A stretch of 11,883 nucleotides of DNA from Candidatus Heimdallarchaeota archaeon (lineage in GTDB: Archaea > Asgardarchaeota > Heimdallarchaeia > Heimdallarchaeales > Heimdallarchaeaceae), in NCBI GenBank assembly GCA_021399395.1, contig JAAFKJ010000030.1:1-11883 (forward strand). Reading direction: 5' to 3'. Position 1 is the first letter of the stretch; each line of letters opens with the position of its first letter. The notes under the pieces are model-generated. The model saw nothing but the letters and a program-made list of their open reading frames with translations. It did no database searches and had not been told where the DNA came from. Of the stretch, positions 2,501 through 7,740 are shown one piece after another. Both the position numbers and the translations under genes were made by a program.

Positions 2501-3538
2501 ATGGAATACGAAATCAATGAATTTGATCCTCAAAAAGCTACTGATGAATTCTGGGAAATTTACTTTGAGTTTACAGAAACTAATTTCAGATATCACAATC
2601 CAGATGATCCACTACCTAATCGAGAAGTAGTTATTCAACGTCAGAAAACTGAAATACCATATTATCACGTTAAACGCTGGCTAGCTATTACTCCAGAAAA
2701 CAAAGTTATAGCTTGGGCTGGTTTTGGAGCAGGTGTTGAAGGTTCTTCAGATTATGAAGAGAATAAACATCTTTGCAATATGAATATTGCAGTTCTAGCA
2801 GACTATGTACGAAAAGGAATAGGTACAGATCTACTTAAAAGAGTAGTTCAAGAAGCTCAAATTCTTGGAAAAACAACCATGGAAGTAAGCACAGATACTG
2901 ATCCAGGTAGAGCTTTCTTAGAACATTTTGGAGCTCAACTCGCTATAGAGGCAGCAGAAAATCGTCTAGATTTAGAGGATATAGATTGGGATCTCATGCA
3001 ATCTTGGGTAGATGAAAGTTCTAAAAGAGCTGAAGAAGTTACAATCGAATCCTTCTATGAATGTCCTGAAGAGATTTTAGAGGAATATTCTGAATTGTAT
3101 ACTGAAGCTTTGAATATGCAACCTCTTGGGGACACCGAACACCGAGCTAATATTGATGGAAAATTAAGAAGGGAGTTGGAACAGGTACTCAAAGATAGAG
3201 GTTTCACAAATTACACCCTCATCAGCAGAGAAAAAGATGGAAAAATATCTGGTTTAACAGAGATACTTTATGATTCTCGAGAAAGCTACAAAATTCTTCA
3301 AGAACTTACTGGTGTTCGTCCCGAATTCAGGGGAAGAGGATTAGGAAAATGGTTAAAGGGAAAGATGATTCTCCATATTCGAGACAATTATCCTGATGTT
3401 GAAGTAATAATAACTGGAAACGCTGAAGCAAATTCACCAATGAACTCTATCAACGAAAGAATGGGATTCAAGAAGCATAAAGCAGCAGGCAGTTACAAAG
3501 TCCTAACAGAAGATATTACTAAACGCTTAGAGATTTAG
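2501..3538 (+). CDS. Tandem (two-domain) GNAT N-acetyltransferase
   Basis: Two acetyl-CoA-binding motifs: AVLADYVRKGIGTDLL...GRAFLEHFG and TGVRPEFRGRGLGKWLK...TGNAEANSPMNSINERMGF. 345 aa. Confidence 0.9.
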   Translation: MEYEINEFDPQKATDEFWEIYFEFTETNFRYHNPDDPLPNREVVIQRQKTEIPYYHVKRWLAITPENKVIAWAGFGAGVEGSSDYEENKHLCNMNIAVLADYVRKGIGTDLLKRVVQEAQILGKTTMEVSTDTDPGRAFLEHFGAQLAIEAAENRLDLEDIDWDLMQSWVDESSKRAEEVTIESFYECPEEILEEYSELYTEALNMQPLGDTEHRANIDGKLRRELEQVLKDRGFTNYTLISREKDGKISGLTEILYDSRESYKILQELTGVRPEFRGRGLGKWLKGKMILHIRDNYPDVEVIITGNAEANSPMNSINERMGFKKHKAAGSYKVLTEDITKRLEI

Positions 3539-4256
3539 AATGATTTTCTGTCTGAGGTTTTTTGACTCTTTTAACTAACAAAAAGAAGATTGTACCTTGA
3601 AGTATGTAAGTTATAACTGAGAGAAAGTTGAAAAGAGTATTTCCTAATCTTTGAGCTTGAGCATTGAAAGTTCCTCCTATAGAAGCGGCTATGCCAACAA
3701 GTATCGAGAAAGCTATCGCAATTATAGATAATATAAGAAAAGAATATTTACTTATTTTTGGAAGCCGTTTATCTATGAAGAAAACAGCTGTATAAAACAT
3801 TACAGCTAGATTTAGAAATAGTGGCCCCATTATTACAAAAATCATGTGAAACTCATAAGCTCCATGATAAACGAATATTATGATGTTCAATGGACATTGT
3901 GCTACCCCAAAGAAGGTTCCTACCCAACTAAGATACTTAGTTATTTTCCGTTCTTTGAAGAATAGCACAAGCAGAGAGAAAAATAACAAGAGTGAAATAA
4001 ATAGTATCCATATGGCTGTTTGAAGAAGTATAAAAGAAATGAGATCTGATTTTTCAATGACTTCTCTAACCACTCCCACTTCACAAAAACCATCATTTAG
4101 AATACTAAAATCAGGATAGAACGCTAAAGCAAATGATACCAAAAGAATCACTAGGAGCATCAATACTATGAAAGACTCGAAGAAATACTCAAGTAAATTC
4201 AATCTCTTCTTGTTCATATCTCTAAACATAGTTTCAGCTGCTTGTTCTAGTTCCAT
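3519..4256 (-). CDS. Polytopic membrane protein (about 6 TM), DUF998/Frag1-like
   Basis: About six hydrophobic segments. YPDFSILNDGFCEVG after TM1 resembles the DUF998 'YPgys..n.iSdLG' loop, and a His (YEFHMIF) sits at the start of a later helix. The ORF-track start 4265 is TTG; ATG 4256 lies 28 nt from TATA-like CTTAAATA (4291-4284). The CDS is confident, the family tentative. Confidence 0.6.
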   Translation of the reverse strand: MELEQAAETMFRDMNKKRLNLLEYFFESFIVLMLLVILLVSFALAFYPDFSILNDGFCEVGVVREVIEKSDLISFILLQTAIWILFISLLLFFSLLVLFFKERKITKYLSWVGTFFGVAQCPLNIIIFVYHGAYEFHMIFVIMGPLFLNLAVMFYTAVFFIDKRLPKISKYSFLILSIIAIAFSILVGIAASIGGTFNAQAQRLGNTLFNFLSVITYILQGTIFFLLVKRVKKPQTENHSKSLSV

Positions 4257-4421
4257 AGGATACAACTATCTTCAGAGAACGGCTATTTAAGGATTATCTG
4301 AAATTTAATCAATGTCACATATTTGTCCTAAGTTATTGATTATCGAAGAAATAATCATACAAACTAGTTGAAGCAAGGGAAAGAAATAAAATGGGAAACG
4401 AGCATGGCATCTGGAGATTAA

Positions 4422-4695: not shown

Positions 4696-5586
4696 ATGAT
4701 TAAAATTAGAAAGAAGTACTATGTAATAAGCTGTTTCGTAATATTAACTCTTTTTTATACACCAGGAGTCGCTGGAAGTATAAGTTTTTCTTTCCACGAA
4801 GACGTAACTGAAAATGCGGTTTTTCATTGGAAAGTTGAGAAATTGGAGGTTTTAGGATATCCAGAAGAAACTGATAGTTTCGACCTTTTCAATAATTATC
4901 TTTCGTTAAGTGAGAATGATGAAATATCAATAACAATCATTAATAATCCAGTTGAACTAGATGGATGGTATCTGGGTTCGGTTGAATATTGGTATGATAT
5001 AATCCTGAATTCAGAGATTGTCGGAAATAATACATTACACTTTGATTTCTTGAGGGTTGCATCATATTATATGGTGGATTTTGTTGATGAATATGGATTA
5101 CTACTGCCTCTAGAATGGACCAATAACACAGGTTACACTTATGAGGTTTTTGTAGAAGGTTACAATGATTTGGAACAAGAGGAATATTATAGTGCGTTTG
5201 ATTATGGAAATCCTGATGAATTCTTAGCAATAAATTACTTTAATGTCTCAAAAACTGAAAATTTCCTTACTCTTACTTATTACTACTATGAACTAGAAAG
5301 TTTTGGAGAAGATTCCGGAAAGGAAGAATTCGAATTTCATATTGAGATTATCTATAATATCCAACATGGTCTCGTTCATGAATTTTATCACAAGGAAATC
5401 ATCTATGATATGTATTCATCAGATATTAGTGGGAAGGTTGAATTTAAACTTGTCAATACTGATCATCTAGAAGAAACTCCTACAACAGAAACAACATTCT
5501 ATCATTCACTTTTATTAACAGGATTAATCACTCTAAGTGTAATTGTCACCCTCAAAAAAAAACATAGAAAGAATAGTATAAAATAG
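4696..5586 (+). CDS. Acidic secreted/surface protein with C-terminal membrane anchor, function unknown
   Basis: Signal peptide (MIKIRKKYYVISCFVILTLFYTPGVAG), a D/E/Y/F-rich body with sequons NNT, NNT and NVS, a Thr-rich stalk (EETPTTETT), a TM helix and a KKKHRK tail. Confidence 0.85.
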   Translation: MIKIRKKYYVISCFVILTLFYTPGVAGSISFSFHEDVTENAVFHWKVEKLEVLGYPEETDSFDLFNNYLSLSENDEISITIINNPVELDGWYLGSVEYWYDIILNSEIVGNNTLHFDFLRVASYYMVDFVDEYGLLLPLEWTNNTGYTYEVFVEGYNDLEQEEYYSAFDYGNPDEFLAINYFNVSKTENFLTLTYYYYELESFGEDSGKEEFEFHIEIIYNIQHGLVHEFYHKEIIYDMYSSDISGKVEFKLVNTDHLEETPTTETTFYHSLLLTGLITLSVIVTLKKKHRKNSIK

Positions 5587-6035: not shown

Positions 6036-6221
6036 TTGTCAGAAGATGATTTCAAAAAAAATGTTCGAGCTCCATGGGGACAGGATCTTCCATATCATGA
6101 CTTACTGGAAATTTTCTTTGCTCATGAACACCAGCATAGAGGACAAGTGAAATTTCTAATTACGTTTTATAGAGGACCGCCTGAATTCACCCCTAAAGAT
6201 GAAAATATTGAGTATGGTTAG
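6036..6221 (+). pseudogene. C-terminal fragment of a DinB/YfiT-family protein
   Basis: LSEDDFKKNVRAPWG...DLLEIFFAHEHQHRGQV matches the DinB C-terminal HxxxHxGQ motif. An in-frame TGA lies at 6012-6014, and no N-terminal portion is recognisable upstream in any frame. The start is TTG with no RBS. Confidence 0.7.
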
Positions 6222-7666
6222 CTCTTCTTTGTTTTTTTAACAGACTTCAATCCAGTTATGAGACCAATTATCATACCTATGCCAAATGTCATCCCAGTTC
6301 CAATGAAGAAATGCCACCCATTCTGAGACAGAGCTGAACTAATTATGACCATAACAATTCCAACAAAGAAATCCACATTACCATCTAGAAATTCAAGAAA
6401 AGTTCCAATAGATTCAAACCCTTCTCCTTTTCCGACCAATCTTACAATGGTATCGACTATTATTAATCCAGCCAATCCCCAGATAGCACTGAGATTACTA
6501 ATACAGAATGTTTGGTTGGGACTCAAAAGATAGAACATAGCATTGCCAAGAAATCCGAACCCTAGATACAGTGTTGGAAAGACCCACTTTGGAAAAGTTC
6601 TTTCCATCCTTCTTCCATAAACGAACAAACACCAGATGAAAGTTAAGAGAACAACAATGCCCGAATATAACTGTAAATTGGAGATTGATGAGAGGAAACT
6701 TATGTCGTCTAAGAAAGAGGAACCATAAGCATAGAAAACACTAGAGAATATTTGCCATATATTGCCTGTAACAGCGTCCCCATTAGTTTGAGCTGATAAC
6801 CCATCGTATCCTCCAAAAACAGCTTGCATTACGATGAAAGCGACTATATATGCTCCAATAAATGTTAGAGTTAACCAATAATGTTTGAATGTTTTCTTGA
6901 TAGAAGGAACAACTTTTTTCTGCCAAAATCCTCTCTTTGGAGGGTCAAATCCTAGTTTGATTGCTTGTTCATAATCTGTTTGAGCAAACTCAAATTCGCC
7001 CATTTTAACATAAGTTTCAGATCTTGTCTTATAGAAAACATGGTTGGTAGGATCGAGTGTGATTGCTTTATCTAGACAGTTTAGTGCTTCTTGATGTTCT
7101 TCTTTTTCTGAATAAATTATACCTAGATTTGCATGTGCCCAGCTACTCTGAGGGTCAAGCTCGATAGCATTTTCATAATCACTAAAGGCTTCATCATACT
7201 TCTTTTGATGAAGATAGACACTACCTCTATTATGGAAAAACTGTGCCTCTGACTGGTCATATTTGAGAGCATTATCAAAATATTTGAGAGCTTCATCCAT
7301 CTCTAATCTCTGGTAATTAATAACACCTATATTTTCATGAGCCCAAGCGTAATCAGGTTTGAGTTTGATTACTTGATCATAATCTTCCAAAGATTTGTCA
7401 AACTCTTTTAAACTGAAGTAGATATTTCCTCTGTTATGAAAGAAAAGATAGTTTGTAGCATCAAGTTCAATTGCTTTGTCCAAATCTATCAATGCTCTCT
7501 TGAGTTTAGCTTGTTCAAAGAATATTCTGCCTCTATTACCTAAAGCACGAGCATTAGTAGGGTCAAGTTCAGCAGCCTTAGTGAAACATGTGAAAGCCTT
7601 ATCCTTATCATTATTTTTGTATAATTCGATTCCCTTTTCAACGAGTTTTTTTGCGTCGTCACTCAT
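6218..7666 (-). CDS. N-terminal 7xTPR + C-terminal rhomboid-fold membrane protein, apparently catalytically inactive
   Basis: Seven consecutive 34-aa TPRs, then a rhomboid scaffold: LTLTFIGAYIVAF, GNIWQIFSSVF, LFVYGRRMER, FPTLYLGFGFLGN, SAIWGLAG, GMIIGL. The GxSG site reads SNLS. The ORF-track start 7672 is TTG; ATG 7666 has AGGA about 10 nt upstream. Confidence 0.85.
   Translation of the reverse strand: MSDDAKKLVEKGIELYKNNDKDKAFTCFTKAAELDPTNARALGNRGRIFFEQAKLKRALIDLDKAIELDATNYLFFHNRGNIYFSLKEFDKSLEDYDQVIKLKPDYAWAHENIGVINYQRLEMDEALKYFDNALKYDQSEAQFFHNRGSVYLHQKKYDEAFSDYENAIELDPQSSWAHANLGIIYSEKEEHQEALNCLDKAITLDPTNHVFYKTRSETYVKMGEFEFAQTDYEQAIKLGFDPPKRGFWQKKVVPSIKKTFKHYWLTLTFIGAYIVAFIVMQAVFGGYDGLSAQTNGDAVTGNIWQIFSSVFYAYGSSFLDDISFLSSISNLQLYSGIVVLLTFIWCLFVYGRRMERTFPKWVFPTLYLGFGFLGNAMFYLLSPNQTFCISNLSAIWGLAGLIIVDTIVRLVGKGEGFESIGTFLEFLDGNVDFFVGIVMVIISSALSQNGWHFFIGTGMTFGIGMIIGLITGLKSVKKTKKS
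6941..7654 (-). repeat. Seven tandem TPR motifs (protein-level repeat)
   Basis: 34-aa units ending ELDPTN, ELDATN, KLKPDY, KYDQSE, ELDPQS, TLDPTN and KLGFDP. Confidence 0.9.
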
Positions 7667-7740
7667 AGTCAACGAATCCTAAGTTGCATCAACGAAATCT
7701 TTGTAAACCGCCCCACATTTAAGTGTAGTGTAGGAAAAAA

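Follow-up and report, generated by a model that had tools for sequence, protein, structure and literature searches.

Does an archaeal protein that carries the fold of a rhomboid protease have to be a protease? This question is raised by a gene on the minus strand of contig JAAFKJ010000030.1 (assembly GCA_021399395.1) of a Candidatus Heimdallarchaeota archaeon, and the first 11,883 nucleotides of this contig, which were analysed as a whole, are referred to here as the window. The gene encodes a predicted fusion of tetratricopeptide repeats (TPRs) with a rhomboid-like membrane domain. A preliminary description, made from the letters of the window, had read it as an intact open reading frame (ORF) of probable Asgard origin, with seven clean N-terminal TPRs that are preceded by no signal peptide and are probably cytoplasmic, and with a C-terminal part of about 210 amino acids that keeps the rhomboid scaffold without the catalytic hallmarks; a non-catalytic adaptor had been suggested. 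The analysis presented here indicates that the protein very probably contains a dead rhomboid fold that has been kept by selection. As an account of the whole protein, a rhomboid pseudoprotease that is specific to one lineage, bears a TPR platform in the cytoplasm, and has a suggested adaptor role is favoured, although with distinctly less assurance.

A divergent rhomboid fold joined to a TPR superhelix

The minus-strand ORF between 6218 and 7672 is open over 484 codons when counted from the TTG at 7672, and the residue numbers used here count from this codon. Two codons further inside, the ATG at 7666 corresponds to the Met with which all orthologues begin and for this reason a product of 482 amino acids is assigned to the gene; numbers based on the ATG are two lower. 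Seven TPRs at the N-terminus of the protein are followed by a basic juxtamembrane helix and then by a membrane domain of six transmembrane (TM) helices, and the coordinates of these and other features are collected in Table 1.

When the C-terminal 240 amino acids alone were compared with the Pfam family Rhomboid (PF01694), a match of 15.9 bits (E 0.016) was obtained, which lies below the gathering cut-off of 22.6 bits set for this family of rhomboid proteases (MEROPS S54). The matches of all seven orthologous proteins, that of the window included, to the same family likewise stay below the cut-off (best E 0.0039), and no second family was a credible match for any of them. In an alignment of profiles by hhalign, the family was paired with a profile of 23 archaeal canonical rhomboids with a probability of 96.2% and an E-value of 2.2e-9, over 175 columns that run from TM1 to TM6 in order. 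Also, all 30 feature neighbours in the ESM Atlas are Rhomboid clusters, with a top score of 0.91 and 172 shared features. An AlphaFold2 (AF2) model was calculated from a 65-row alignment consisting of the window's domain, its 6 orthologues and 58 canonical rhomboids, and it displays six long helices with a predicted local distance difference test score (pLDDT) of 79.4 and a predicted template modelling score (pTM) of 0.74. A Foldseek search of the Protein Data Bank (PDB) with this model returned GlpG for all of the top 33 matches (probability 0.96-1.00, template modelling score on the target 0.55-0.71, E 0.014-0.42), and chains of iRhom1 appeared lower in the list. The preliminary description had named the lack of a rhomboid fold in a structure search as an outcome that would speak against it, and this outcome did not occur.

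Several features of canonical rhomboids are kept in the domain, namely the Trp and the QxFSSxF helix of loop L1, the Glu after TM2, an aromatic residue four positions after the nucleophile position (Trp398), and the small-residue motifs of TM4 (G/A pattern) and TM6 (GxxxG). In the MAFFT alignment with the 58 canonical rhomboids, the domain differs by insertions of 21 residues (L1/TM2), 9 residues (TM5), and 8 residues (top of TM6). Might the resemblance be a chance match of hydrophobic helices, the membrane domain belonging to an unrelated family? The Pfam score below the cut-off would fit such an explanation, as would the poor AF2 model of the membrane domain that was obtained from the orthologues alone and the searches of PDB sequences with the membrane domain (phmmer and profile hmmsearch), in which no match was found at E up to 10. 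However, the hhalign result with its helices in order, the agreement motif by motif (QxFSSxF in L1, G..xE after TM2, and the G patterns of TM3, TM4, and TM6), the common Pfam family of all seven orthologues, and the uniform ESM Atlas neighbours make a chance match very improbable. Profile-profile and fold comparison thus indicate that the membrane domain is a very divergent rhomboid, a six-TM bundle whose resemblance to the superfamily is judged to go beyond chance, and the scaffold recognized in the preliminary description is upheld at this level.

The repeat region is more easily classified. Pfam TPR_1 matches seven stretches in the N-terminal region (167.9 bits, 1.1e-50) and the AF2 model from the seven orthologues contains 14 helices with pLDDT above 90 over residues 3-237, in agreement with the seven repeats described earlier and with the tandem 34-residue helix-turn-helix units of the TPR family. 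The solved structures nearest to this model in Foldseek are designed consensus-TPR superhelices (31-34% identity) and the TPR domain of OGT, and the region is predicted to form a consensus-like TPR superhelix. Asn occupies position 6 of the repeat in TPR2 to TPR6, and four of these five residues (N78, N112, N146, and N180) are invariant in all seven orthologues. In OGT, an asparagine ladder at position 6 of the TPRs binds extended peptides. The position-6 Asn may be a weak hint at peptide binding in the window protein, this residue also belonging to the TPR consensus.

With regard to topology, lysine and arginine residues number 7 before TM1 (in the juxtamembrane helix), 4 in the end of TM2 and loop L2, 2 around L4, and 5 in the C-terminal tail, and there are none in L1, L3, and L5. 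No hydrophobic stretch was found N-terminal to the TPRs. Because of this charge distribution and of the non-hydrophobic N-terminus, the TPRs and both termini are predicted to be cytoplasmic (N-in/C-in), as in the six-TM rhomboid core, and the earlier proposal of cytoplasmic repeats without a signal peptide agrees with this topology.

Replacement of the catalytic residues

The positions of the catalytic residues were compared by three alignment methods: hhalign, MAFFT (with 58 canonical rhomboids), and a hidden Markov model (HMM) built from these 58 canonical sequences. In all three, the canonical SAGASGxxFGLLG of TM4 pairs with CISNLSAIWGLAG, and Leu394 falls on the nucleophilic Ser with a high HMM posterior, as the preliminary description had read it from ISNLSAIWG at 6502-6476. 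The two Gly of GxSG are matched by Ser392 and Ser395, and the N-terminus of TM4 therefore reads SNLS in place of the motif with the nucleophile. The sequence SNLSAIWG is identical in the nine copies found in genomes and in the seven database proteins, and the residue before it is I or L. Similarly, all three methods pair TFGIGMIIG with the AHxxGxxxG of TM6 and put Phe463 on the general-base His, and the spacing of the Gly residues (+3, +7) fits only this register. Thr-Phe463 is again identical in all nine genome copies and seven database proteins, and His454 lies 9 residues upstream of Phe463. Apart from the confidence of the HMM in TM6, which is considered below, the earlier assignment of this motif stands.

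In TM2, the columns H..H...N correspond to Tyr336, Val341, and Phe345 in the MAFFT and HMM alignments, so that Val341 and Phe345 take the place of the oxyanion-hole residues of HxxxN and Tyr336 that of the preceding His. The alignment by hhalign places this stretch otherwise and there is still no His or Asn in it. The WR of L1 is WQ in the window protein, and among the seven orthologues WQ occurs in two and WH in five; both the changed WR and the missing HxxxN had been noted from the sequence. Leu394, Phe463, and Tyr336/Val341/Phe345 are invariant across all orthologues examined, and no protein with Ser or His at the canonical positions was found among the nine genome copies and seven database proteins, although close orthologues retaining GxSG or His had been considered a possible outcome that would argue for recent decay. 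These alignments indicate that the Ser-His dyad and the TM2 oxyanion residues have been replaced by Leu, Phe, Tyr/Val, and Phe and that catalysis has probably been lost. With hydrophobic residues at these places, no hydrated active site is expected.

Nevertheless, the protein could still be an intramembrane protease if it used a register-shifted dyad in which His454 pairs with Ser395 or Ser392, or if a different residue, for example Cys390, acted as the nucleophile. Ser392, Ser395, Cys390, and His454 are invariant in the seven proteins, and the two Ser residues and His454 are so in the nine genome copies too. The predicted TM6 helix (208-239 by DSSP in the AF2 model) has His454 as its third residue, a place at its start which presumably resembles that of His254 in GlpG, and a low posterior for the TM6 alignment leaves some room for another register. 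However, the high-confidence alignment of TM4 puts Leu, not Ser, at the N-terminus of the helix, and the spacing of Gly residues (L+5 and L+8 in TM4, F+3 and F+7 in TM6) fits Leu394 and Phe463, not Ser395 and His454. Both Gly of GxSG and the TM2 His and Asn of the oxyanion hole are gone. In addition, 22 residues separate His454 from the cytoplasmic end of TM6, as compared to 15 in the case of the catalytic His in the canonical rhomboid of this genome, so that His454 would lie near the outer surface and not in a recessed site. Because of the lost glycines and oxyanion residues, the Gly registers, and the distance of His454, protease activity is regarded as improbable.

Selection, distribution, and origin of the family

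Six orthologues of 482-491 amino acids were found in databases; they are 64-86% identical and all have the same architecture. Where these proteins and the canonical rhomboid of the same genome bear organism names, the names are Heimdallarchaeota or Heimdallarchaeaceae, as the proposal of an Asgard origin would predict. An exhaustive phmmer search of 1.84 billion representatives yielded P0008 as the sole full-length cluster, together with two short fragments and a further match (P0011), a repetitive protein of 686 amino acids that was judged spurious from its sequence and rejected as a relative. No unfused relatives were detected at E up to 0.001 in a profile word-search for proteins of 130-426 amino acids. 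Among species representatives, most of them 65-95% complete, the fusion of TPRs with a catalytically dead rhomboid was present in 9 of the 25 genomes that represent the window's genus, and it was found in none of the 58 from elsewhere in the class. All 25 genomes of the genus encode a canonical rhomboid above the Pfam cut-off, and the one encoded on contig C150 of the window's own genome (G000) is a protein of 210 amino acids with HxxxN, GASG, and AH. Six DNA sequencing runs from two studies (sediment and cold-seep metagenomes) contain the window stretch, and no RNA sequencing run was listed as containing it.

Ratios of nonsynonymous to synonymous substitutions (dN/dS, omega) were calculated by the method of Nei and Gojobori on the nine genome copies and are reported for the seven pairs with dS below 1 in both domains; because a single clade holds four of the nine copies, the pairs do not count as independent. 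Omega ranged from 0.036 to 0.120 in the membrane domain and from 0.117 to 0.347 in the TPRs. The membrane domain was also more conserved than the TPRs in 34 of all 36 pairs, equal in one, and lower in one. The gene is intact and held by purifying selection. The check on conservation and dN/dS that the preliminary description had recommended gave omega values of at most 0.347 in these seven pairs, and its claim of an intact ORF is confirmed.

Does the gene descend from a rhomboid that was recently inactivated and is now on its way to a pseudogene? Its distribution within the genus is patchy, and broken extra copies exist in two genomes. In one of them (G014, contig C32; locus L012, 1-918 and ~1909-2022), a second, diverged and truncated copy covering residues 17-322 with 59% identity runs off the contig start and is then broken, followed by a tail fragment with a TAG; in the other (G015, contig C37; L013, 377-565), a tail fragment with two stops lies upstream of the intact copy. 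Thus, the family duplicates and copies decay. However, all nine genomes contain a copy with an intact frame, dS is saturated between the deepest orthologues and yet the omega of the membrane domain is at or below 0.12, and the canonical positions hold neither Ser nor His in any orthologue, all of which makes an incipient pseudogene scarcely credible.

The same figures bear on a further explanation, according to which the rhomboid-derived domain is a mere membrane anchor or oligomerisation scaffold for a TPR docking platform and does not recognise TM clients. In favour of it, no client is known for the window protein, and the TPRs of Staphylococcus aureus ActH alone carry its known function, for which the rhomboid domain is dispensable, as described in the available part of PMC9245657. 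This precedent keeps the anchor explanation in consideration. Against it, selection constrains the membrane domain more tightly than the TPRs, which argues that this domain is more than an anchor, and its many invariant polar and loop residues (YGSSFLDD, YGRRMERTFPKW, SPNQ, GKGEGFE, and SSALSQNG) are hard to square with a passive role. The anchor explanation is therefore considered unlikely, but less so than a retained protease activity.

A tree was constructed from the 9 family members and 58 canonical archaeal rhomboids, four rows being distant rhomboids of 263-346 amino acids and short fragments being left out. The family forms a clade with 100% support on a stem of 5.3 substitutions per site, which carries a long-branch warning, and because of this very long stem the donor clade is not resolved by the tree. 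The narrow range of the family points to an independent and recent origin. Elsewhere in the genus, weak matches to PF01694 (E 0.004-0.07) were rejected as probably due to chance, since the one that was read (G017, contig C64) has no rhomboid motifs.

Suggested adaptor role, gene neighbourhood, and known systems

What might a rhomboid fold without catalytic residues do? The gene probably arose within one Heimdallarchaeial genus from a rhomboid gene that diverged extremely and gained a TPR superhelix at its N-terminus, on the cytoplasmic side. In the most likely mode of action, TM segments of clients would be bound by the membrane domain, as they are by rhomboid-fold proteins, the basic juxtamembrane helix would hold the TPR groove at the cytoplasmic face, and the groove would bind an extended peptide or the tail of a soluble partner, whereby a membrane client would be coupled to a cytosolic factor. 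Such an adaptor has precedent, as YqgP of Bacillus subtilis, an active protease with an adaptor role that is independent of catalysis, presents MgtE to FtsH (available text of PMC7231995) and as dead rhomboids of eukaryotes bear cytosolic binding domains (available text of PMC12615303). This mechanism, a membrane client joined to a cytosolic partner, is proposed tentatively, its chance of being correct being put at somewhat below even. A more specific version, in which archaea would have evolved their own equivalent of the iRhom/Derlin principle and the dead rhomboid would recognise unstable or orphan TM helices and deliver them, by way of the seven-TPR groove, to a soluble machine such as Cdc48/VAT-20S, PAN, or a chaperone, is speculative and rather unlikely as it stands.

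Several points weigh against the favoured account of a rhomboid pseudoprotease with an adaptor role. The Foldseek E-values are modest (0.014 and higher), and the AF2 model with which they were obtained is biased towards the rhomboid fold because canonical rhomboids were included in its alignment; when AF2 was given just the seven orthologues, its model of the membrane domain was poor, and block pLDDT lay at 41-66 for the greater part of the domain. The alignment posterior of TM6 in the HMM is low, and the invariant Ser395 and His454 lie near the canonical catalytic positions, so that some residual or altered catalysis is conceivable. Finally, the neighbours vary, and neither in the window nor in eight orthologous loci do they include a gene for an AAA ATPase, a proteasome, a protease, or a chaperone. 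Of the archaeal non-catalytic adaptor put forward in the preliminary description, the loss of the catalytic residues is thus borne out by the alignments, and the adaptor function is left without backing from linked genes.

The neighbours of the gene in the window encode a DUF3160 protein, GNAT acetyltransferases, a two-TM zinc-ribbon protein, two membrane proteins without family, a TfoX_N-like protein, a family-5 solute-binding protein, and an FAD (flavin adenine dinucleotide) amine oxidase. In the eight orthologous loci the neighbourhood is loosely kept, with the amine oxidase, TfoX_N-like, and zinc-ribbon genes recurring. In L018 and L021 the zinc-ribbon gene is the next one downstream of the orthologue; in L007 it lies within ~600 bp of it, across an opposite-strand DinB-like ORF, and in the window and L017 the distance is 3-4 kb, with other genes between. 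The TfoX_N-like gene recurs by the orthologue in L017, L019, and L020. For the membrane protein of 248 amino acids, L017 contains a homologue with 86% identity, and the matches in L021 are weaker and shorter. In four loci, a gene for a four-TM protein of 181 amino acids is found directly upstream of the orthologue, a place where it does not occur in the window or L017; its L018 copy, the one copy scanned, matches the PEMT, ICMT, and DUF1295 methyltransferase families.

Table 1. Features of the TPR-rhomboid-like gene, its neighbours in the window, and related features in other loci (positions refer to the window unless a locus or contig is named; aa, amino acids; L, loop)
Feature	Position	Strand	Remarks
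Coding sequence of TPR-rhomboid-like protein	6218..7666	minus	482 aa from ATG at 7666; stop codon 6218-6220; in-frame TTG at 7672
Seven TPRs, predicted cytoplasmic	6956..7660	minus	residues 3-237 (ATG numbering); Pfam TPR_1, AF2, Foldseek
Linker and basic juxtamembrane helix	6878..6955	minus	7 Lys/Arg, no acidic residue; helix 5-20 of the second (65-row) AF2 model
Predicted six-helix rhomboid-fold membrane domain without catalytic residues	6245..6877	minus	Pfam, hhalign, ESM Atlas, AF2 and Foldseek
21-residue insertion between L1 'WQIFSSVF' helix and TM2	6671..6733	minus	contains invariant YGSSFLDD; MAFFT with 58 canonical rhomboids; pLDDT dips to 59
TM4 start ISNLSAIWG in place of GASGxxFG	6476..6502	minus	residues 391-399; Leu394 at nucleophile position, Ser395 adjoining
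Invariant His454 in 8-residue insertion, top of TM6	6311..6313	minus	MAFFT; 7 of 7 proteins, 9 of 9 genome copies
TM6 motif TFGIGMIIG in place of AHxxGxxxG	6263..6289	minus	residues 462-470; Phe463 at His position, GxxxG spacing kept
DUF3160 protein (cut by window start), then single-GNAT, then double-GNAT acetyltransferase	1-1443, 1481-1942, 2501-3538		GNAT genes kept in L017
Two-TM protein with C-terminal zinc ribbon	1966-2376	minus	relatives L018:6553-7041, L021:6732-7178, L007:1-384
Predicted membrane protein, 248 aa, ~6 TM	3519-4265	minus	no Pfam family at E up to 0.01
Predicted membrane protein, 296 aa, ~2 TM	4696-5586	plus	no Pfam family at E up to 0.01
TfoX_N-like protein, 113 aa	7880-8221	minus	E 3e-4, below cut-off; 208 bp upstream of the TPR-rhomboid-like gene, same strand
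Four-TM protein, 181 aa, directly upstream of orthologue	L018:8833-9378, L019:5405-5950, L020:4665-5210, L021:8820-9365	same as orthologue	distance ~115 bp
Weak PF01694 matches in membrane proteins of ~320-376 aa	G017:C64:1021-1350 (L022 268-1380), G013:C135, G030:C55, G025:C44		

Rhomboid pseudoproteases have been described almost wholly from eukaryotes, according to the available text of PMC12615303 and PMC7231995, and the existence of bacterial rhomboids without catalytic residues is stated in the available part of PMC9245657, which cites Lemberg and Freeman (2007). Full-text literature searches, in whose scope subscription journals and supplements were not included, retrieved no paper focused on such an Asgard protein. 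It is still debated by what route the fold of a protease can turn into a client adaptor that does not catalyse, and the family would offer a clean natural case from a prokaryote, with a canonical paralogue alongside, all catalytic residues changed to hydrophobic ones, strong constraint, and a cytoplasmic protein-binding module. It may also serve as a small model, expressible in bacteria, for functions of the rhomboid fold without catalysis. Its restriction to one genus means that it has no direct bearing on the origin of eukaryotic Derlins or iRhoms.

In comparison with known systems, the window protein shares with rhomboid proteases (MEROPS S54, PF01694; GlpG of Escherichia coli and Haemophilus influenzae and the genome's own rhomboid) a predicted six-helix bundle with the same order of motifs and N-in/C-in topology, the Trp of L1, the Glu after TM2, and the small-residue packing of TM4 and TM6. 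It differs from them in that the Ser, the His, both Gly of GxSG, the His/His/Asn of TM2, and the Arg of WR are all replaced, and in its three insertions (21, 9, and 8 residues), its Pfam score below the cut-off, and its N-terminal TPR domain.

iRhoms are defined by a large luminal iRhom homology domain between TM1 and TM2 and by a Pro before the lost Ser. In the window protein, L1 comprises 47 residues and the motif is SNLS without Pro. Nor was there any match to Pfam DER1 (PF04511) or to the DUF1751 of TMEM115 (PF08551) at E up to 10, the HMM check named in the preliminary description yielding only the Rhomboid family below threshold and DUF4131 with 7.5 bits; the Pfam signatures of Derlins and TMEM115 are thus both missing. 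With the eukaryotic pseudoproteases (iRhoms, Derlins, UBAC2/Dsc2, and TMEM115) the protein has in common what the available text of PMC12615303 describes for them, a dead rhomboid fold under selection combined with a cytosolic protein-binding module, whereas it is archaeal, restricted to a genus, and placed on a private long branch. Because of its confinement to 9 of 25 genomes of one genus, this branch, and the lack of DER1 and TMEM115 matches, no link to iRhoms or Derlins is implied, and the sequence comparisons point to an origin independent of them, by convergence and not by ancestry.

A rhomboid domain fused to TPRs is also found in B. subtilis YqgP/GluP and in S. aureus ActH. ActH has a seventh TM helix and, at its C-terminus, three extracellular TPRs (available part of PMC9245657). 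YqgP shares this layout, and ActH keeps its catalytic residues. In contrast, the window protein has seven TPRs that are N-terminal and predicted to be cytoplasmic, six TM helices followed by a basic cytoplasmic C-terminal tail, and no canonical catalytic residues, and it cannot be assigned to the YqgP/ActH type. Judged by its sequence, it is a pseudoprotease-like protein that lies outside every named family of rhomboid pseudoproteases.

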